Positions 1-8,904 of a DNA stretch of 48,261 nucleotides are shown here, one piece after another. Position 1 is the first letter of the stretch. Each line of letters begins with the position of its first letter. The DNA comes from a virus (lineage: Duplodnaviria; Heunggongvirae; Uroviricota; Caudoviricetes): positions 1-48,261 of the IMG/VR virus record IMGVR_UViG_3300033068_001142. The stretch is one strand, 5' to 3'. The notes under the pieces were generated by a model. The model worked only from the letters and a program-made list of their open reading frames with translations, did not search any database and was not told where the DNA came from. The translations under genes were made by a program, and so were the position numbers.

Positions 1-501
1 GATGTATTGTACGTGAAGGATAGTGGTAATGGTGCATTGACTAAGGTAGTTCCTACTGATAGTCAAGTTAAATTGCCAGTAGCTATTGTGATTAGTTCTC
101 ATGCGACTAATGGGACATTGTTTGTTAGAGTTAACAGTATTGATGAAAATCATGCTAAGGTAGAACTAGCTAGTAAAGTAGATAAGAATGCAGCTATTAC
201 TGGCGGTACTGCTACAAAGGTTACTTATGATGCTAAGGGGTTAGTTACTAGTGGTACTACGTTGGTAGCTAGTGATATACCTAGTTTGGATGTTAGTAAA
301 TTAACGACTGGTGTACTGCCTGTTGCTAGGGGAGGTACTGGGACTAGTACTTCTACTGGGTCAGGAAATGTAGTGTTGAGTGCTAGTCCCATATTTACAG
401 GAACGCCAGTTGCACCTACTGCTAGTGTTGGCACTAGTACAACACAAATAGCGACTACAGGGTATGTGGTTGCTGAGATAAATAAAATAGAGGAGTGGTA
501 A
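1..501 (+). CDS. Tail fibre protein, C-terminal part (reading frame open from base 1, so probably 5'-truncated by the window)
   Basis: Fibre-type repeats KVTYDAKGLVTSG, LPVARGGTG, SPIFTGTPVAPTA..TQIATTGYV; stop overlaps next start (TAATG at 499-503). Confidence 0.75.
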   Translation, partial: DVLYVKDSGNGALTKVVPTDSQVKLPVAIVISSHATNGTLFVRVNSIDENHAKVELASKVDKNAAITGGTATKVTYDAKGLVTSGTTLVASDIPSLDVSKLTTGVLPVARGGTGTSTSTGSGNVVLSASPIFTGTPVAPTASVGTSTTQIATTGYVVAEINKIEEW

Positions 502-3476
502 TGAGGATAAATAAACACGACACAAATGGAACAAAACCCTTACTAGGTAAGGGTGAGTTAGGGTATGATGACTACGCTGCAGGTGGTGATGTAGGTAGAG
601 TGTATGTTGGTACGGGAAGTGAGAATATAGCATTAGCAGAAAGGCTTGAGTCTAATATGATGACAAAAGCTCAATTTAATGCTTTAGCTGAAGAACGAAA
701 AGCTAATAGAGCGGGGAGTGGGTTTGATGAGTTTGGTAAGCACGCAGTTTCTACTAATAATTACCCTAACATAAATGAAGGTATGTTCGTTTCTGTTTTA
801 AATAATGCAATATACAACGGTAATATAAAACTCGGATACACCGGTGTAGATAATACAGGTGTGTCAAAAACAAATTATCCAATTACAAATGTTAATGGCG
901 TTAGACACAGAGTCGATAATGGTGGAGCATCTAATAATATAACACTACCCACAGCACCAAACATATACCCACACGATACAGTTCTAACAGCAGAACAAAT
1001 CAATAGTGGTGTAATAAAACACGCAGATGCTAGTAATAGTGGGTTGATTGTTAATGGTAAGTTTGATACGGACACGAGTGGGTGGAACAACCTATCAACT
1101 GGCACAGGTAGTATTTTGTATTCTGGCGGTAGAGTACTACTTTCTGGTGCGGATGGTTCTAACAGAGGTGCTATCTCTCAAGTGATACCCACTGTTATTG
1201 GTAAAAAATATACAGCAGAGCTTAACATAGAAATAGTTTCAGGTTCACTTAGTCTATTTGGTACATCAGTAGGCTCTGGTGGAGTAACCGCATCAAATGG
1301 TAGAAATACGTATGAATTTACAGCTATTAATGCTTCTACTACAATACTATTCTACACAAGCTCTGCTTCTGGCTCTGCATATATAGACAACATAGCAGTA
1401 TATCCAGCAGATGCAATATCAAGAAGTGATTTAGTATTCCTAGAATCTTGGCATGAAGATGTAAGTGAAAAGAACTTTGTATATCCATTAGGAAATGTAC
1501 AATATCTAGGTGCTAACACAGATGGTTTAACTGGAATTACTAATGGTAATTTTACTGGATTTGAAACTTACTCGTTGTTCGGTAATTGGCAATCACCAAG
1601 TTCACTAATTGGTAAAGGTTATGTATGGAGTTCATTATCAGAGGCTCAAAAGAAGGCGTTTATATCTAATCCTGATAATAATTGCTATTTAGATGGGGAT
1701 AAAGTTATTCAAGTTAGATATAGAATGAGGGTTATACAAGGTGCTAGGGATACTTGGGCTACTGTAGACCCTCAAATGCCGGGCTCGTTTGAAGCTATGA
1801 GTAGCGTACGACTAGAACTTGTTGTAGCCGCAAAAGGTAAAAGAACATCTATTAATGATTTAATCTCTAATGTGACCGGAAGTAACGACCATCAAGTTTT
1901 CTGGAATGATTCTAGTACTCTATCAGGTCTAATAAATAAGAGTACTGGGGCGTTTAGTATTCCCTATACAACTACTGGAATAGCTTACGAAGGTAAATGT
2001 TTTGCACTTCCAATCGCTCTTGCGCAAAAACGTAACCAGGGAATGTACCATAATGTATATAATCCAAATGGTACAAAAGTAGCTTCAGATGGATTAGATT
2101 GTTTTAAAACGGCAGTAAGTTTCACGAGCATTAGTGATTGTTTTGACTCAGCGAAATTATTAACAGCAAGTGGATATATTGGAAGTGCTAGTGGTAGACC
2201 AGACGGATTATTCTATGACCAAGTACACGAAAGTGATATTTTAGATTTAAGAAATAGTAGTAAGAAAGTAGAAGATTACAATAGGTTAATTGGTAGAGAG
2301 TTTAATAAACTTGTTGCTGGAACTACAAGAGGTAAAGAGGGTGAAAGTGATATTGTAATGATAAGAACTTTTACTAAGACAAGTACATTCGGGCAAGACA
2401 ATAATCGTTTTTATTTTGGAATATCATCTGCTATATATCCTCAACAATCATTTTCACTGACAGAAAGCAATAGCTATTATCTATTGGGGAGTAATGGAAG
2501 TGTTTACTCTGTAAACCAAATCATAAATCAAAGTGCAACGGGAACATTGTATGTACCTTTTGGGACAACACAAGTTTATGTCCCGATTGATGGTAAAAAT
2601 ACAGCAGGAACAATGAATACTTTGTTTCCAGACGGTACAACAATAACTGTAATTGTAGCAAAAAGAACTACTAGAACAAAGTCAAACACTTTGCTACATT
2701 GTGACATTATCGGTAATCCAACTAATTACCCAACAGCTTGGAAAGAAAGTGGAGTATTTGGAACACCTCTAATTGTTGCAGAAGACGGGACAAGTTTACT
2801 ACCGGATGGTGTGAGAGATACATTCAAGCTAAGTAGAAAAGCAAATGCTACACCTTTATTATGTTTAAGAAGTACAGATAATGGTGTAACTTGGACAAGT
2901 TTTACTCCAACATTTAGCACAACAACTAATGCAATAACTTTAACAGATGAACCTGCTAATAATTTGGTAATGGTTTATTATCAAACAAAAACAAGTATGG
3001 CTGTTCCAGTTGTTAATAGTGAAGTACTAGAAATAGGCGACGTATTTGCAACTAGTTATTCTTCTCGTAGCCCATTGGTTAGTTCTCTAATTGAAAAAGT
3101 ACCAACTTATCAAGCCGGTATAGCAGGTGTTGTTCCTACACAGATATTAGGAAAACCTACTAATTATATTTTTAATTACTTAAGTAAGATAGAGAACACA
3201 GATGGTTACAGAGACGTACCACAACATAAATCAACAACCTTAACTCCGGTAACAACACCATCTATTAAAGTATTCCCATACCTAACAAGATTAAATGGAA
3301 AAGCTTACTTGAATTTAGTGTTTAAAGAAATGAAACATAATGGTACTTCTTGGGGAGATTCAAATAAATTTGAAATTGTAGATAAAGTTTCTACTACTAC
3401 GGATAACAATGCACAAACAGTATTGATAGGGCAAAAAACAGTAGAGTTACCATATTTTATAGCAGGAGATGAATGA
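501..3476 (+). CDS. Large tail fibre/receptor-binding protein with a CBM-like domain
   Basis: About 991 aa from ATG 501 (TAATG overlap); Gly/Ser/Thr/Asn-rich; NGKFDTDTSGW carbohydrate-binding-like motif; followed by a chaperone-like gene. Confidence 0.7.
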   Translation: MRINKHDTNGTKPLLGKGELGYDDYAAGGDVGRVYVGTGSENIALAERLESNMMTKAQFNALAEERKANRAGSGFDEFGKHAVSTNNYPNINEGMFVSVLNNAIYNGNIKLGYTGVDNTGVSKTNYPITNVNGVRHRVDNGGASNNITLPTAPNIYPHDTVLTAEQINSGVIKHADASNSGLIVNGKFDTDTSGWNNLSTGTGSILYSGGRVLLSGADGSNRGAISQVIPTVIGKKYTAELNIEIVSGSLSLFGTSVGSGGVTASNGRNTYEFTAINASTTILFYTSSASGSAYIDNIAVYPADAISRSDLVFLESWHEDVSEKNFVYPLGNVQYLGANTDGLTGITNGNFTGFETYSLFGNWQSPSSLIGKGYVWSSLSEAQKKAFISNPDNNCYLDGDKVIQVRYRMRVIQGARDTWATVDPQMPGSFEAMSSVRLELVVAAKGKRTSINDLISNVTGSNDHQVFWNDSSTLSGLINKSTGAFSIPYTTTGIAYEGKCFALPIALAQKRNQGMYHNVYNPNGTKVASDGLDCFKTAVSFTSISDCFDSAKLLTASGYIGSASGRPDGLFYDQVHESDILDLRNSSKKVEDYNRLIGREFNKLVAGTTRGKEGESDIVMIRTFTKTSTFGQDNNRFYFGISSAIYPQQSFSLTESNSYYLLGSNGSVYSVNQIINQSATGTLYVPFGTTQVYVPIDGKNTAGTMNTLFPDGTTITVIVAKRTTRTKSNTLLHCDIIGNPTNYPTAWKESGVFGTPLIVAEDGTSLLPDGVRDTFKLSRKANATPLLCLRSTDNGVTWTSFTPTFSTTTNAITLTDEPANNLVMVYYQTKTSMAVPVVNSEVLEIGDVFATSYSSRSPLVSSLIEKVPTYQAGIAGVVPTQILGKPTNYIFNYLSKIENTDGYRDVPQHKSTTLTPVTTPSIKVFPYLTRLNGKAYLNLVFKEMKHNGTSWGDSNKFEIVDKVSTTTDNNAQTVLIGQKTVELPYFIAGDE

Positions 3477-3871
3477 TGTATAAAACAGAAGATGAACTAA
3501 GAGAGGTTATCTCTCTTGGTAAACCAGAAGAAGTAATTAATATATTTCTTGAATCGTATTTACAAGGATTAGAGTTTGAGAAATGGAAAGAAGATAAAGA
3601 CCTTGAAGCAACTGAAGAAATAGTCGTAGGGCAAGATGAAGATGGTAGTGATATTGTTGAAACTAGACTTGTAAATGTTTACGAGCCAATTGATGTATCT
3701 GAACAGATGAAGCAATGGAAACTAGATAACTACCAAATACTTAGACAACCCCTCTATCCAAATATGGCAGAGTATGTTGATGCAGTAGTTAAGGGTGATA
3801 TAGAAGCACAAGAAAGATACATAGCTAAATGTTTAGACATAAAAGCCCGTTATCCAAAGGAGATGCAATGA
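3473..3871 (+). CDS. Tail fibre assembly/chaperone-like protein
   Basis: C-terminal LRQPLYPNMAEYVDAV...IKARYPK pattern typical of fibre chaperones; directly downstream of the fibre gene. Confidence 0.6.
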   Translation: MMYKTEDELREVISLGKPEEVINIFLESYLQGLEFEKWKEDKDLEATEEIVVGQDEDGSDIVETRLVNVYEPIDVSEQMKQWKLDNYQILRQPLYPNMAEYVDAVVKGDIEAQERYIAKCLDIKARYPKEMQ

Positions 3872-4248
3872 AGTTAGAAGAATTTAATTTAAAGTATGTG
3901 TATAAAACTGATAAAGATAAATTTGGTTTCATTGAAGTTTGGGAGGTCCCTGAGCTTCAAGATGGGAAGTATTATGGAGATTGTGAAAGCTATTGTCTTT
4001 TTCTAAAAAAGAATGTACCTGAATTTAAGGATTGGGATTTATACTTCTGCAAGATTAATGGAAATGGACATTGTATTTTGTACAAAGATGAGAATGTTAT
4101 AGACTGCAATATCAAAAGTGTTGCTAGTTTTAGTAACTATGGTAAGATTTATAGAGTTAGTGAGTTTAGTAAATATAATAAATTTACTATAGTGTCAAAA
4201 CTGTTAGTGTCAAAGGTGGTGTTATGGTTTCGATCTTTGATAGATTAA
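3868..4248 (+). CDS. Transglutaminase-like cysteine protease (BTLCP/LapG-like)
   Basis: WEVPE..GDCESY, GHCIL and VID give a Cys-His-Asp triad spaced as in BTLCP (GDCEDY..HAVL..LDN); start at ATG 3868 after AAGGAG. Confidence 0.6.
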   Translation: MKLEEFNLKYVYKTDKDKFGFIEVWEVPELQDGKYYGDCESYCLFLKKNVPEFKDWDLYFCKINGNGHCILYKDENVIDCNIKSVASFSNYGKIYRVSEFSKYNKFTIVSKLLVSKVVLWFRSLID

Positions 4249-4469
4249 GTAGTATGCCGAAGGATAAGTTGTTACATAGCTTTTATGGTACATTAATGTA
4301 CGCTGTAATAGCATTGGTTGATGTTACATTAGCTTTTGGTGTTACAGTACTAGTTGCTATAAGTAAAGAAGTACATGACTTTAAAGTTAAGGGCGAGTTT
4401 AGCTTGATGGATATTGGAGCTACGATTGGATTAGCTTTGGTATTGTGGGTAGGTAGTATATGGGTTTAA
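4224..4469 (+). CDS. Small multi-TM membrane protein (VanZ-like DKxxH motif)
   Basis: DKLLHSFYG followed by about three hydrophobic segments. Confidence 0.55.
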   Translation: MVSIFDRLSSMPKDKLLHSFYGTLMYAVIALVDVTLAFGVTVLVAISKEVHDFKVKGEFSLMDIGATIGLALVLWVGSIWV

Positions 4470-5155
4470 TGGATAAAATTTGTGATATGTTCTCACCATT
4501 TAGTGTATCTAGGCAGAAGGATATGTTGGGAGTTGTTAACGATATCGCTAGTGATGTGGCTGCTATTAAAAACTTGAATGAGACTAGGATTAAGAAAGTT
4601 AGGGACTATAAGAAGCAATTGGGAGAGTTGGAAGCTAAGAGGAAGGAAGAGCAGAGGTTGTTTACTTCTGTTATTGACCACCTTGATGATATGGTTTGGG
4701 CTAAGGATAAATTTGGTAGGTACATTATGGCTAATAAAGCTTTTAGGGAGAAGTTCTGTTATGGGATGACTTGGGATGAGCTTAAGGGTAGAACTGATGT
4801 AGAAATAGCTACTGAGTTTAAGAGAAGAGTAGGTAATGATAACCATACGTTTGGTGAGGTTTGTGCTAACTCTGATGAAGTGATACTGAAGACTAATCAA
4901 GCAAGAGAGTTTTTAGAGTACGGTAATATTAATGGTAAGCTTGTTAAGTTGATTGTTAATAAGTCACCTGTATATGATGGGGATGGTGTGTTGTTTGCTA
5001 CTGCTGGTAGCGGTAGGGATGTTACGTGGTTACATGATAAATTGGAGAAAGCTTTGAACTTTTGTTCCTCGTGTAAAGATACTGAGTCATATGATGTGTT
5101 AGACCAGTTGTTTAAAGAAATAGAGTTTAAGGAAGGGGATCATGCAAGAGTTTGA
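4460..5155 (+). CDS. Stand-alone PAS-domain protein with N-terminal coiled coil
   Basis: SVIDHLDDMVWAKDKFGRYIMANKAF...ELKGRTD...NKSPVYDGDGVLFATAGSGRDVT is a canonical PAS/PAC signature; no kinase, GGDEF or HTH output domain. Confidence 0.85.
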   Translation: MGLMDKICDMFSPFSVSRQKDMLGVVNDIASDVAAIKNLNETRIKKVRDYKKQLGELEAKRKEEQRLFTSVIDHLDDMVWAKDKFGRYIMANKAFREKFCYGMTWDELKGRTDVEIATEFKRRVGNDNHTFGEVCANSDEVILKTNQAREFLEYGNINGKLVKLIVNKSPVYDGDGVLFATAGSGRDVTWLHDKLEKALNFCSSCKDTESYDVLDQLFKEIEFKEGDHARV

Positions 5156-5471
5156 TGGTAGAATAGTTGAGTATAGAGTTGAGCAGCTAGAGAAACAGAA
5201 TAGCAAGATTGTTGATACTGTTGAAAAAGTGGCTGAAAATAATGATAAGATGTTTACTAGTATTGAGTTGATTAAGCAGAGAATTGGAATCTACTTGATA
5301 ATAGGAGGTTTGATTTACAATACTGCGTTGGCTTTAGCTTTACACTTTTTAGGTAATGATGAAAAGTATAATGAGAATGATAAGAGAATGTACTACGAAA
5401 GTAGGGTTCAGGAGTCTGAGACTATTAAGCAGCTAAGAGACGAAATAGCTAGATTAAAGGCTGGAAGATGA
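5142..5471 (+). CDS. Single-TM coiled-coil protein (holin/antiholin or hemolysin XhlA-like)
   Basis: YRVEQLEK coiled coil, one TM (IGIYLIIGGLIYNTALALALHFL), lysis-cassette position. Confidence 0.5.
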   Translation: MQEFDGRIVEYRVEQLEKQNSKIVDTVEKVAENNDKMFTSIELIKQRIGIYLIIGGLIYNTALALALHFLGNDEKYNENDKRMYYESRVQESETIKQLRDEIARLKAGR

Positions 5472-5535
5472 GTAAGGCGTTAAGGCTTACTCTTCAGCTG
5501 GTAGAGGCTATTAGGGCAGAGGATATTAAAAGGAG

Positions 5536-5754
5536 TTGTTAGTGAGAAGGTTTATAGAATGGTTAGAAGCTGACAAGAAAAGAACTAGGAAGGTACTAGC
5601 TTTGTTTACTGCTGCTACTTGGTTGCTAGCTATTATGTGTAGTTATGGTATGCTTGTGTGGGGGTTTAGTACTATTGAAATTTTGAGTCTTGTTACAGCA
5701 CAGTTTGCTGCTGTTATCGGGTTTTACATGGTTAGTAATGCGGAGAGTGATTAA
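5536..5754 (+). CDS. Putative class II holin (2 TM)
   Basis: Basic N-terminus (KKRTRK) and two TM helices; AGGAG at 5531 with TTG 5536 or GTG 5542 start; upstream of spanins and endolysin. Confidence 0.6.
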   Translation: MLVRRFIEWLEADKKRTRKVLALFTAATWLLAIMCSYGMLVWGFSTIEILSLVTAQFAAVIGFYMVSNAESD

Positions 5755-6107
5755 TGGTTGAGAAAATATTGTATGGTGTAGTAGTTGCTATGGGTATTAC
5801 CATTGTAGGTATGTGGATTGATAATACTAGGTTAGAAGGTAAAGTTAGTAGTTTGAATGTTGATTTAGTGGTTAGTAAAACTAATGAGCTTACGTTGGGT
5901 AGTGTAATTAAAAGACAGAATGATGCTATTAGTGAGTTTGAGGTTGATAAAGCTAAAAGAGAGCAGGAATATACTGAGTTGTTAAGTCAGCCTGAAAAGG
6001 TTAGGTTTGAGAAGGTGTATGTTAAGGTTCCAAGTATAGAGGTGAAAAGTGATGAATGTAAAGATATTAAAAAGCTTATTGATGATATTCGTAATGCTGG
6101 TTATTAG
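5754..6107 (+). CDS. i-spanin (Rz-like)
   Basis: N-terminal TM then coiled coil; overlapped by a lipoprotein gene. Confidence 0.75.
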   Translation: MVEKILYGVVVAMGITIVGMWIDNTRLEGKVSSLNVDLVVSKTNELTLGSVIKRQNDAISEFEVDKAKREQEYTELLSQPEKVRFEKVYVKVPSIEVKSDECKDIKKLIDDIRNAGY

Positions 6108-6279
6108 TGGATGTACTGAGAAGGTGTTTGTTGATAGGCCGGTAGAAGTTAAAGTTCCTGTTAAGTGTAAAGTTCCTGAGGTCAAATGTTTTCCTAGGCA
6201 AAATACTTACACTGAAGAGATTAAGGAGTTGAGGATGTGTGTTGAGAGACATAAACAAGCAGCGGAGGTATGTAAGTAA
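6052..6279 (+). CDS. o-spanin lipoprotein (Rz1-like)
   Basis: Signal peptide with lipobox ISG-C; VPVKCKVPEVKC Pro/Cys motif; overlaps the i-spanin 3' end; GAGGTG RBS. Confidence 0.8.
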   Translation: MNVKILKSLLMIFVMLVISGCTEKVFVDRPVEVKVPVKCKVPEVKCFPRQNTYTEEIKELRMCVERHKQAAEVCK

Positions 6280-6833
6280 TGGCAGATATTAGAGTTGCGT
6301 TTGATAAGATGCTGAAGTTGGAATTTAATAGTCCAGCTAATGCTTTACACTTTAATGAGGGAGAGAATGGGTATACCTTTATGGGAATATATGAGTATGC
6401 TCATCCTATGTGGAGTGGTTGGGAAATAGTGCATGCGGTGTTAGCTAAGGAGAAGAGTTTAGCTAAAGCTAGTGTGGTACTGTATTTTAATACAGAGTTG
6501 AAAAATGCTGTTTTGGAGTTTTACAAGAAAAGCTTTTGGGATAAGATGAGGCTTAGTGAAGTTAGGTCACAGAATACCGCTGAAGAGGTGTTTGTTTTTG
6601 GGGTTAATGCAGGAATCAGTAAGGCAATCAAGTTAGCACAGAAGGTAGTTGGGGTTAGTGTTGATGGTGTTATTGGTAGTAAGACTTTAGAGGCACTGAA
6701 CAAGTTTGATGAAGTTGAGTTTAGTGCTAGGTATGATGTGGAAGAGATTAAGTACTATGAAGGATTAGTTGCTGGTAATAGTAACTTTAGGAAGTATCTG
6801 ACTGGATGGAAAAATAGGGCAGTAGCGATTTAA
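6279..6833 (+). CDS. Endolysin, glycosyl hydrolase 108 / TtsA-like with C-terminal peptidoglycan-binding domain
   Basis: LEF..N.GENGYTFMGIY, FVFGVNAG..AIKLAQKVVGVSVDGVIGSKTL, YLTGWKNR. Confidence 0.85.
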   Translation: MADIRVAFDKMLKLEFNSPANALHFNEGENGYTFMGIYEYAHPMWSGWEIVHAVLAKEKSLAKASVVLYFNTELKNAVLEFYKKSFWDKMRLSEVRSQNTAEEVFVFGVNAGISKAIKLAQKVVGVSVDGVIGSKTLEALNKFDEVEFSARYDVEEIKYYEGLVAGNSNFRKYLTGWKNRAVAI

Positions 6834-6863
6834 GCTAAGGTTAAAGTCTATTGAGGTATAATA
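6829..6863 (+). promoter_or_regulatory. Predicted host sigma70-type late promoter upstream of portal
   Basis: TATAAT at 6857-6862 with upstream TTAAG/TTAAAG tracts, in an intergenic gap. Confidence 0.55.
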
Positions 6864-6888
6864 GAGGTAAATTAAAATAGGACGTGTA

Positions 6889-8904
6889 ATGAAGATAAAT
6901 AAAAAGCAAATATTAGACGCCTTGAAAGCTGACTTAAAAGCATCTGATCAAATGAGGTTGGAGTGGTTTAATAAGATACAGGAGTGGAAGAACGAGACTA
7001 GTGGACAGCCTTATGGTAATGAGGTTAATGGTAAGTCTAGGATTGTTAGTAAAGACATAAAGAAACAACTAGAATGGATGTTACCTACTCTAGCTGATCC
7101 TTTTTTGAGTACTCCTGATATTATTAAATGTAACCCTATTACGTATGAGGATGTTGAAGCAGCTAGGCAAAATGAGATTTTGTTAAATACTCAATTTTGT
7201 AGAAAGTTTCCAAGGTATAATTTTATTATGAAGAGTTTGAAGGTCTTAGCTACTGAAGGTACGTTAGTTGTTCAGACTGGTTGGGATTATGAAGATGCTG
7301 AAATTGAGACAATGGTGGAGACTGTTGTTAGTGATGGGATTACTGGTGAAGAGTTTATTACTTTAGCTAAGCAAGTAAATACGGTGGTTAAGAAGAATCA
7401 ACCTACTGCTGTTGTTTGTAGGAATGAGGATATCTTTATGGATCCTACTTGTATGGATGATATTGATAAGTGTCAGTTTGTAATACACAGGTATGAGACT
7501 GACTTAAGTACTTTAAAGTCTGATGGTAGATATAAGAACTTAGATAAAATTACAGCTGAAGGTCATAATAGGGATTATGGGTTTTACCCTGAAGATAAGA
7601 CTTACTTTAACTTTGCTGATGATGCTAGAAAGAAGCTAGTTGTTTATGAGTATTGGGGTAACTATGATGTTAATGATGATGGAATTGCTGAACCAATTGT
7701 ATGTGCATGGGTTGGTAATACTATTATTAGGTTACAGAGTAATCCGTATCCAGATAAGAAGCCACCGTTTATAATTGTACCGTTTAATGCTGTACCGTTT
7801 CAAATGCACGGAGAAAGCTTAGCTTCAGTAATAGGTGATAATCAGAAAGTTAAAACAGCTATTATTAGAGGTGTAATTGACAATATGGCTCAAAGTAATA
7901 ATGGTCAGATTGGTCTTAAGAAAGGTGCTTTAGATATGGCTAATAGGAAGAAGTTCCTAGCTGGTAAGAATTTTGAGTATAATGGAATGCCTAGTGACTT
8001 TTGGCAGGGTAGTTATAATCAAATACCTGGAAGTGCTTTTGATATGTTGAGTATTATGAATAATGAGATTGAAAGTCAAACTGGAGTTAAGAGCTTTAGT
8101 GGTGGGATTAATGCTAGTGCTTTAGGCAGTACGGCGACTGGTGCTAGAGGAGCTTTAGATGCTACTGCAACTAGGAGAATGAGCTTAGTTAGAAATGTGG
8201 CTGAGAACTTGATTAAACCGTTAATGAGAAAGTGGATGGCTTACAACTCAGAGTTTTTAGAGGAAGAAGAGGTTATTAGAATAACTAACGATGAGTTTGT
8301 CCCTATTAGGAGAGACGATTTAGATGGGAATATTGATATTGATATTAGTATCAGTACTGCTGAGGATAATAGTGCAAAAGCACAAGAGTTGAGCTTCTTG
8401 TTACAGACTATGGGACCTAATCAAGACTTTGAGTTGAATAAGATGTTAATGGCAGAAATTGCTAGATTAAGTAGAATGCCGCAGCTAGAAAAACAGATTA
8501 AAGCATTCCAACCACAACCAGACCCAATGGCTGAACAGTTGAAACAGGTTGAGATGATGAAGCTTCAATTAGAGATTGAGCTGATGAAGGCTGAGATTAG
8601 AGATAAGAATGCTAGAGCAGGTGAGAATGAAATTGATGCTCAAGTAAAATTGGCTAAAGCTAAAGTGGAAGAAGCTAAGGCTAGAAAGCTTGGAAGTGAA
8701 GCTGATAACATGGATTTAGATTTCCTTATGAAAAATGAAGGTGCTGATAAAGTGGATAATTCAGAGAGTGAGTTTGCTAAGTATATGTTAGATAGAGAGT
8801 ATAAGCTTGAAGATGATGAGTTTAATAGACGGCATGAGTTAGATAAGTTAGCTTTAAAAGGTATGATGGATATGGAAAAAACTAGAAAAGTTGGAGGTAA
8901 GTAA
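6889..8904 (+). CDS. Portal protein (N4 gp59-like)
   Basis: LKADL..W..GKSRIVSKDIKKQLEW..L.DPFL..P.TYED..ARQNE.LLN.QF matches the recalled N4 portal N-terminus; 671 aa. Confidence 0.92.
   Translation: MKINKKQILDALKADLKASDQMRLEWFNKIQEWKNETSGQPYGNEVNGKSRIVSKDIKKQLEWMLPTLADPFLSTPDIIKCNPITYEDVEAARQNEILLNTQFCRKFPRYNFIMKSLKVLATEGTLVVQTGWDYEDAEIETMVETVVSDGITGEEFITLAKQVNTVVKKNQPTAVVCRNEDIFMDPTCMDDIDKCQFVIHRYETDLSTLKSDGRYKNLDKITAEGHNRDYGFYPEDKTYFNFADDARKKLVVYEYWGNYDVNDDGIAEPIVCAWVGNTIIRLQSNPYPDKKPPFIIVPFNAVPFQMHGESLASVIGDNQKVKTAIIRGVIDNMAQSNNGQIGLKKGALDMANRKKFLAGKNFEYNGMPSDFWQGSYNQIPGSAFDMLSIMNNEIESQTGVKSFSGGINASALGSTATGARGALDATATRRMSLVRNVAENLIKPLMRKWMAYNSEFLEEEEVIRITNDEFVPIRRDDLDGNIDIDISISTAEDNSAKAQELSFLLQTMGPNQDFELNKMLMAEIARLSRMPQLEKQIKAFQPQPDPMAEQLKQVEMMKLQLEIELMKAEIRDKNARAGENEIDAQVKLAKAKVEEAKARKLGSEADNMDLDFLMKNEGADKVDNSESEFAKYMLDREYKLEDDEFNRRHELDKLALKGMMDMEKTRKVGGK

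Follow-up and report, generated by a model that had tools for sequence, protein, structure and literature searches.

Why would a phage carry a stand-alone sensor domain amongst the genes with which it lyses its host? The question is raised by the window, by which we mean the whole stretch of 48,261 nucleotides analysed here (IMG/VR virus record IMGVR_UViG_3300033068_001142, positions 1 to 48,261), in which a 231-residue PAS protein is encoded immediately upstream of a 109-residue single-pass membrane protein, hereafter the partner, amongst predicted lysis genes. Lysis timing sets phage burst size and fitness and, to our knowledge, beyond T4-type lysis inhibition and now that of N4, almost nothing is known of how phages adjust it to conditions. 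The answer we favour, tentatively and with a confidence slightly short of even, is that the cytoplasmic PAS sensor and its membrane partner form a module that tunes lysis time to a cellular cue.

The window represents the left part (48 kb) of the genome of an uncultured N4-like podovirus. Its portal protein shares 65% identity with that of Alteromonas phage vB_AmaP_AD45-P1 ('N4 gp59-like') and approximately 40% with those of Pseudomonas N4-like phages, and giant virion proteins are encoded 3' of the portal gene. DNA near-identical to the window was found in wastewater and freshwater metagenomes.

The PAS protein, its pocket motif and its origin

The PAS gene, the elements of its product and the partner gene are as follows:

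4460-5155, plus strand: stand-alone PAS protein of 231 amino acids (ATG at 4460, stop codon at 5153-5155)
4505-4678, plus strand: N-terminal helix of the PAS protein, 58 residues (residues 16-73; AlphaFold2)
4691-5020, plus strand: five-stranded PAS core (residues 78-187; AlphaFold2)
4841-4876, plus strand: residues 128-139 of the PAS protein, motif NHTFGEVCANSD; E-alpha/F-alpha region of the fold
Residues 189-201 and 209-221, plus strand: two C-terminal helices of the PAS protein (AlphaFold2)
5063-5074, plus strand: CSSC (residues 202-205), a partly conserved cysteine pair 3' of the PAS core
5142-5471, plus strand: partner, a single-pass membrane protein of 109 amino acids whose gene overlaps the PAS gene by 14 nt

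The original prediction, made from the letters of this DNA, described a full PAS domain with an N-terminal coiled coil and no output domain, and this description holds. Residues 73-189 match Pfam PAS_4 (PF08448) at E=6e-8 (33.3 bits against a cut-off of 23.1), and the NCBIfam model TIGR00229 'PAS S-box' is matched at 31 bits against a cut-off of 22.9. The AlphaFold2 model, computed from an alignment of 69 relatives, has a mean predicted local distance difference test (pLDDT) score of 86.6 and comprises the 58-residue helix in the region described as a coiled coil, a core with strands at residues 78-83, 88-91, 149-157, 160-172 and 178-187 separated by helices, and the two C-terminal helices. 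Foldseek comparison of this model with the PDB returned only PAS domains as top matches (DosP, the PAS domain of BvgS, short LOV proteins and NifL; probability 1.00), and a profile search of PDB sequences with our PAS alignment (A1) gave nothing at E<=0.001. As no second Pfam domain was found within the 231 residues, the protein lacks an output domain.

The dN/dS ratio of the PAS gene, calculated against both close and distant relatives, is 0.08-0.2 and thus similar to those of the portal and endolysin genes; by this measure, it is a real gene under purifying selection. Metagenomes yielded more than 546 relatives of 210-250 residues, counted as clusters at 90% identity; all match PAS_4 and none is named. 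PHROGs holds no family for either the PAS protein or the partner, and a search of 50,697 GenBank phage records, by blastn with positions 3400-7000 and by tblastn with the PAS protein or the partner, returned no match; the family therefore appears not to be represented in the cultured phages of that collection.

The motif NHTFGEVCANSD is nearly invariant amongst the phage proteins and is also common to a bacterial subfamily of sensor PAS domains. Amongst the sequences of alignment A1, T130, G132 and D139 are invariant, and H129 and C135 are present in at least 90%. The E-alpha/F-alpha region in which the motif lies usually holds the cofactor in PAS proteins such as FixL, DosP and PYP, and its conservation suggests that a candidate ligand or cofactor site has been retained. 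The original prediction had instead drawn attention to the C-terminal CSSC, which is present as described but is not conserved across the family: CxxC is the form found in near relatives and occurs in 37 of the 120 best homologues, CxC occurs in most of the others, and some members, such as P0004, have neither. The second PAS protein of G000, the 205-kb virus record that contains the window, carries CNGC. This poor conservation rules out CSSC as a defining redox motif. The flavin-adduct motif GXNCRFLQ is absent from the translated PAS sequence, and the LOV matches found with Foldseek are only 14-18% identical to it.

Where the domain came from is indicated by its bacterial relatives. An exhaustive profile-free search identified 6,244 proteins at E<=0.001, and the best non-phage matches were multi-PAS sensor proteins. 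Phage and bacterial PAS sequences have a set of motifs in common (DM.WAKD, GRY..AN.A, HTFGE.C.[ND]SD, E.GN..GK and GRD.T) and are 35-48% identical, including the linker helix that precedes the domain. Scanning 185,579 species genomes for these motifs gave 528 matches, the best 80 of which are mostly from Campylobacterota (Sulfurimonas, Sulfuricurvum, Arcobacter/Aliarcobacter and Poseidonibacter), the suspected host group, and also include Bacteroidales, Cloacimonadota, Chloroflexota and others. The bacterial carriers are histidine kinases (HisKA/HATPase) and GGDEF cyclases of 373-1528 residues, whereas the phage proteins comprise 190-260 residues and have no output domain. On the basis of these motifs, the PAS core is a member of a bacterial HTFGE.C.[ND]S sensor subfamily of histidine kinases and diguanylate cyclases. 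Given that the phage PAS domain retains the pocket motif and core residues of these bacterial sensors and that dN/dS is 0.1, it is likely a functional sensor.

Small stand-alone versions amongst the bacterial 'genomes' were limited to L053-L055 and L070 (the prefix L denotes loci of our survey), again with a tail-anchored partner, and these look like phage contigs binned into metagenome-assembled genomes. The C-terminal tail (F.EGDH) and the N-terminal segment of the PAS protein are specific to the phage family. P0195, a 552-residue metagenomic membrane protein resembling histidine kinases, has a phage-type PAS unit at its C-terminus, including a CxxC...Y.F.EEE tail, and the tail is thus not exclusive to phage proteins.

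The PAS-partner gene pair and its place amongst lysis genes

The PAS gene had been described as translationally coupled to both of its neighbours, with a small membrane protein gene upstream and genes for a transmembrane coiled-coil protein, a holin-like protein, spanins and an endolysin downstream, and we found the locus to be arranged in this way. The PAS open reading frame (ORF) overlaps the upstream 81-residue ORF by 10 nt and the downstream partner ORF by 14 nt, and a Shine-Dalgarno-like run, AAGGAAGGGG, lies in front of the latter. The partner is predicted to consist of a cytoplasmic N-terminal helix of about 47 residues with the motif EYRVxQLEK, a transmembrane domain (TMD) at approximately residues 48-70, and a C-terminal helix of 40 residues; AlphaFold2 models it as two helices spanning residues 3-71 and 78-107. 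Prediction from the sequence places the TMD at residues 48-66, with a coil on either side.

This coupling is a constant feature of the family. An ORF with a single TMD starts between -32 and +16 nt from the PAS stop codon in 40 of 42 IMG/VR loci, and every NCBI, ENA and Logan locus that we inspected likewise has one at this place, including loci whose PAS protein is only 28-40% identical to the query. As a word-based homologue search for the partner gave only four close relatives, its diversity was taken from these loci instead; a protein atlas search yielded unnamed clusters and a lead to DUF7201 under a useful score. The partners comprise 63-138 residues, with a single TMD preceded by a helical segment of 40-65 residues that carries a recurring [W/E]xYRxxxLE motif and by TK immediately before the TMD. 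The additional 40-residue C-terminal helix, with the motif YSE.EK..YYE.R (alignments A2 and A4), is confined to the clade of the window; partners outside this clade are strictly tail-anchored, with 63-93 residues in most distant partners.

The two proteins also vary together. Across 18 non-redundant loci, the similarity matrices of PAS and partner correlate with a Spearman coefficient of 0.65, compared to 0.11 for PAS and portal and 0.03 for partner and portal. The two N4-like units of G000 provide a second example, as their flanking genes are 57-81% identical while their PAS proteins are 35% identical and their partners are of different types. Judged by these patterns, the PAS and partner genes are a conserved two-gene module with one evolutionary history that differs from that of the portal. 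Two family members, P0150 and P0214, carry N-terminal TMDs of their own, which independently suggests that the PAS protein acts at the membrane.

The homologues of the pair are linked to lysis genes, and the hydrolases beside them differ from locus to locus. A peptidoglycan hydrolase is encoded within 0-3 genes of the pair, and may belong to GH108, Amidase_2, CHAP, Peptidase_M15_3, Peptidase_M15_4 or Phage_lysozyme, or a DUF5675 protein occupies the slot; the pair has thus been retained beside lysis genes through at least six changes of endolysin family. The order of the genes varies as well, with spanins 3' of the pair in the window, L008 and L029, and 5' of it in L026, L038 and L048. At four distant loci, L025, L027, L039 and L040, no recognisable lysis gene lies beside the pair.

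In a related 90.8-kb wastewater contig (X6), similarity to the window at 85% identity or more is confined to 4460-6864, from the start codon of the PAS gene to 31 nt past the endolysin stop codon. Given these limits, the block from PAS to endolysin behaves as a single mosaic unit. Similarity to the window is lost at both 4452 and 4460 in X4 and X5, and at 4460 and again at 6864 in X6. Positions 4452-4460 and 6864 are thus recombination boundaries that frame the block. Collectively, the data support the assignment of the PAS gene to the lysis cassette, at the 5' end of which it lies, and its specific tie to the adjacent transmembrane coiled-coil protein.

The remaining genes of the cassette and its downstream boundary are as follows:

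4224-4469, plus strand: small membrane protein of 81 amino acids with 2-3 hydrophobic segments (TM segments at residues 20-48 and 59-77)
5468-5542, plus strand: 24-residue remnant of a 41-residue ORF ending in Cys; the window copy has a 51-nt in-frame deletion
5536-5754, plus strand: 72-residue class-II holin-like protein (two TMDs) in the position of N4 gp62
5754-6107, plus strand: i-spanin-type protein of 117 amino acids, N-terminal TMD followed by a coiled coil
6049-6279, plus strand: o-spanin-type lipoprotein of 76 amino acids with the lipobox LVISGC; overlaps the i-spanin gene
6279-6833, plus strand: endolysin with GH108 and PG_binding_3 domains (Pfam; PHROG 315, E 2.7e-26)
6889-8904, plus strand: N4-type portal gene, downstream boundary of the cassette

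The 76-residue lipoprotein matches the Rz-like spanin family PHROG 456 (E 0.004), the 72-residue protein has a 64% identical homologue in L008, and the endolysin has no N-terminal signal-arrest-release (SAR) or signal segment. Promoter and terminator scans of 3300-7000 gave counts equal to those in shuffled sequence and no internal signals. Homologues of the 81-residue protein (33-56% identity) are found in L016, L022, L023, L046 and the second unit of G000; the protein is not conserved in L001, L004 or L008, and its relatives precede PAS in only some lineages. Two genes upstream of PAS, at 3829-4248, the window encodes a 139-residue protein that is conserved at 43-58% identity upstream of PAS in L014, L016, L020, L022-L024 and the second G000 unit and has a weak, below-cut-off match (E 0.002) to BTLCP, a family of transglutaminase-like cysteine proteases.

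The ORF of which the window retains a remnant is found intact elsewhere. In approximately ten lineages, a conserved ORF of 41-44 residues that always ends in Cys (...T[FY]xxxC) lies directly 3' of the partner gene (L011:7009-7134, L008:3099-3224, L033:6808-6933, L036, L037, L041, L042 and L026:4508-4633), and at L135:772-906 it lies directly 3' of a TMD-fused PAS protein. L011 has a full-length copy, as do the X4 and X6 contigs, in which extra letters are present at 5526-5543. This small ORF may be a third component of the module.

Several loci show further variations in architecture or provenance. At L040:5977-7187, a tail-anchored partner is encoded between two PAS genes, with a 166-residue protein upstream and a 147-residue protein (PAS/PAS_9 match) downstream. 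In L039, only a few genes separate a distant PAS and partner pair from a gene for a family-B DNA polymerase (L039:9890-11416), which indicates that the module is also present in phages that are not N4-like; apart from this polymerase, Pfam searches of the large ORFs downstream of the distant loci were uninformative as to phage type. G000 holds two diverged N4-like units. The second (C1:105620-110805; locus L136) has a PAS/lysis cassette of its own, consisting of a 211-residue PAS protein (35% identical), an 89-residue tail-anchored partner, a 172-residue protein with two TMDs, a GH108 endolysin (57%) and the portal (77%), and G000 probably arose when the genomes of two related phages were joined during assembly, and is not a single genome of 205 kb. 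L053 and L054 (JAEHHB010000038.1 and JAEHGX010000003.1) and L001-L003 are located on contigs of about 100 kb filed as Candidatus Shapirobacteria / Falkowbacteria assemblies, on which tail-fibre, PAS, lysis and SU10/N4-type portal genes form a block; these look like N4-like phage contigs binned with Candidate Phyla Radiation (CPR) genomes. The X4 library, which is labelled metatranscriptomic, is identical to X5, which is probably DNA, and the two may be one data set. We rejected the X4 contigs that cover the PAS gene as RNA evidence, because contigs from such libraries cannot show transcription.

A proposed mechanism and its alternatives

The closest experimental reference for this cassette is phage N4 (Awuah et al., bioRxiv 10.1101/2025.11.12.688109). 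Its pinholin, gp63, has 110 residues, with a single TMD behind a long cytoplasmic N-terminal helix, and gp62, which has two TMDs, regulates lysis. The N4 genes are ordered gp63, gp62, the SAR endolysin gp61, the spanins gp60/60a and the portal; rapid-lysis mutations cluster beside the gp63 TMD, and the same 2025 preprint proposes that lysis inhibition acts on a cytoplasmic region of gp63 through an as yet unidentified factor.

In the mechanism we propose, the PAS protein and its partner would be made together late in infection, of which their coupling and co-inheritance are the observed part. A PAS dimer, probably formed through the 58-residue N-terminal helix, would dock on the cytoplasmic helix of the partner; we infer this binding, and with it the direction of the effect that follows. 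Depending on the state of the conserved pocket (H129/C135), the PAS protein would restrain or release hole formation by the holin-type proteins, and the signal read by the pocket could, at a guess, be redox, oxygen or a small metabolite. A physiological or superinfection cue would in that case set the time of lysis and, with it, burst size. The PAS protein would in this manner serve as a sensor-bearing cytoplasmic antiholin or holin regulator, standing to its partner as T4 RIII does to holin T, and would be a regulator of the kind postulated for N4 gp63. A bolder version, which we regard as possible but doubtful, makes the PAS protein the founding example of a signal-sensing cytoplasmic antiholin that binds the helix of a gp63-type holin and gates the holes by redox, oxygen or a metabolite through a pocket derived from host kinases, with the Cys-terminal peptide of some lineages completing a three-part switch. 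On this version, the module would amount to a widespread, previously undescribed control of lysis timing in N4-like and other aquatic phages, and to a natural model for the gp63 inhibitor of N4.

A number of observations weigh against the proposal that the pair tunes lysis. What ties the pair to lysis is solely where its genes lie, their coupling and their co-inheritance. No similarity was detected between the partner and N4 gp63 (BLASTP E 0.1; hhalign of 38 partners against 121 gp63 relatives gave a probability of 44% over 28 coiled-coil columns only) or any characterised holin or antiholin, such that its holin-type role is itself an inference. The PAS protein carries no recognisable cofactor signature of the LOV or haem c type, and its Cys pair is not conserved. 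The endolysin of the window is soluble and not of the SAR type, and the N4 pinholin model is therefore not directly transferable. Finally, the closest cultured relatives, N4 and AD45-P1, lyse their hosts without a PAS gene.

We ranked three alternatives, the first of which, improbable in our estimation, is that the PAS protein is a ligand-independent scaffold that dimerises or chaperones the partner for the assembly, stability or stoichiometry of a holin complex, with lysis proceeding free of any signal. Many PAS domains do serve as dimerisation modules, the PAS protein has no recognisable cofactor motif, and the two-gene module and its link to the membrane count in its favour too. However, a pure scaffold would not need the sensor residues, and the near-invariance of those that define the bacterial sensor subfamily, including HTFGE.C.[ND]S, a motif typical of ligand sites, across phage proteins that are otherwise 28-50% identical argues against it.

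Somewhat less probable again, we consider, is that the PAS protein and its tail-anchored partner form a membrane module unrelated to hole formation, with a role in superinfection exclusion, counter-defence or control of the host envelope. Phage late operons carry accessory genes, the function of the pair is deduced from its position, and L025, L027, L039 and L040 have no recognisable lysis gene beside the pair. Set against this, the pair has kept its place beside lysis genes while the endolysin was replaced at least six times and the spanins were reordered, moves with them as one mosaic block, and has no PADLOC match, and the position and topology of the partner equal those of the N4 pinholin.

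In the lowest-ranked alternative, the PAS protein acts as a decoy: by forming heterodimers with PAS kinases or diguanylate cyclases of its own subfamily in the host, it would block or hijack their signalling during infection. This is conceivable because the phage PAS is 35-48% identical, upstream linker helix included, to the PAS modules of bacterial histidine kinases and GGDEF proteins and because the genome matches come mostly from the suspected host group, but we judge it very unlikely, as it leaves the invariable coupling to a membrane protein and the location in the lysis cassette unexplained, PAS is a late-operon gene while the host take-over functions of N4-like phages are early, and the C-terminal tail and N-terminal segment are phage-family specific.

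If the PAS protein and its partner do tune lysis time, a ligand-sensing domain in the lysis cassette would represent a new way for a phage to monitor the physiology of its host as infection reaches its final step. The family is large, with over 500 sequence clusters recovered from aquatic samples that include wastewater and freshwater. A compact pair of sensor and membrane effector could also serve in building inducible lysis switches.

Comparison with known systems

The original prediction knew of no characterised lysis cassette with a PAS sensor, and our literature searches agree. Full-text searches for PAS together with lysis cassettes, holins, antiholins, N4-like phages or Schitoviridae found nothing relevant, and the only characterised phage PAS sensor that they returned was VqmA-Phage of vibriophage VP882, a quorum-sensing receptor that combines a PAS and a DNA-binding domain (PMC8284805). 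VqmA-Phage resembles the protein described here in that a phage PAS sensor captured from a host-type receptor makes the killing of the host depend on a small molecule. It differs in having a DNA-binding output, through which a temperate phage is switched from lysogeny to lysis at the level of transcription, whereas the PAS protein of the window has no output domain, is paired with a membrane protein and is encoded amongst the lysis genes of an N4-like phage of virulent type. What is new is that the sensor takes a split form, in which a soluble PAS protein accompanies a tail-anchored one, that it occurs in an N4-like phage and that it can be related to the gp63 paradigm.

Two groups of sensors offer further parallels. 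The short LOV proteins PpSB1-LOV and MrLOVe likewise consist of an N-terminal helix, a PAS core and a C-terminal helix without an effector, and signal through protein-protein contacts; unlike them, the PAS protein of the window lacks GXNCRFLQ, has a much longer N-terminal helix (58 residues) and is found in a different genomic context. The HTFGE.C.[ND]S kinases and cyclases of Sulfurimonas, Sulfuricurvum, Arcobacteraceae and others have the same near-invariant residues as the phage PAS, but are multidomain proteins with kinase or cyclase output, whereas the phage PAS has no output domain and is followed by a tail-anchored protein.

The nearest mechanistic analogue of the proposed action of PAS on its partner is that of RIII on holin T in phage T4. 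Holin T is a single-pass protein with a cytoplasmic N-terminus, and is subject to a periplasmic antiholin, RI, and a small cytoplasmic one, RIII, whose binding delays lysis in response to a signal. RIII, however, has neither a PAS fold nor a ligand pocket, the signal is superinfection and is sensed in the periplasm by RI, the lysis genes of T4 are neither adjacent nor coupled, and there is no homology to the proteins of the window.

N4 itself is the closest system overall. It is of the same lineage, with an N4-type portal and a virion RNA polymerase, and its cassette likewise lies between the tail genes and the portal; the 109- and 72-residue proteins of the window match gp63 and gp62 in order, size and topology. 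The 72-residue protein has no significant sequence similarity to N4 gp62 and, as the same holds for the partner and gp63, we refer to the two proteins as positional and topological analogues, not as family members. AD45-P1 gp016 (L010:6626-6958), a 110-residue hypothetical protein, is encoded directly upstream of the portal and carries no lysis annotation. With a TMD at its C-terminus and a long coiled coil at its N-terminus, it has the layout of the N4 gp63 pinholin. Because N4 and AD45-P1 have a tail-anchored protein and no PAS gene, PAS looks like an add-on acquired by a subset of lineages, and the tail-anchored protein like a general component of the lysis machinery. N4 differs from the window in having no PAS gene, in its SAR-type endolysin, where the window encodes a soluble GH108 enzyme, and in the order of its endolysin and spanin genes. 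The partner of the window differs from gp63 by its extra 40-residue C-terminal helix, while most distant partners are strictly tail-anchored as gp63 is. As the window and N4 belong to the same lineage, the PAS-partner pair offers a concrete candidate mechanism for the cytoplasmic pinholin inhibitor that is being sought in N4.

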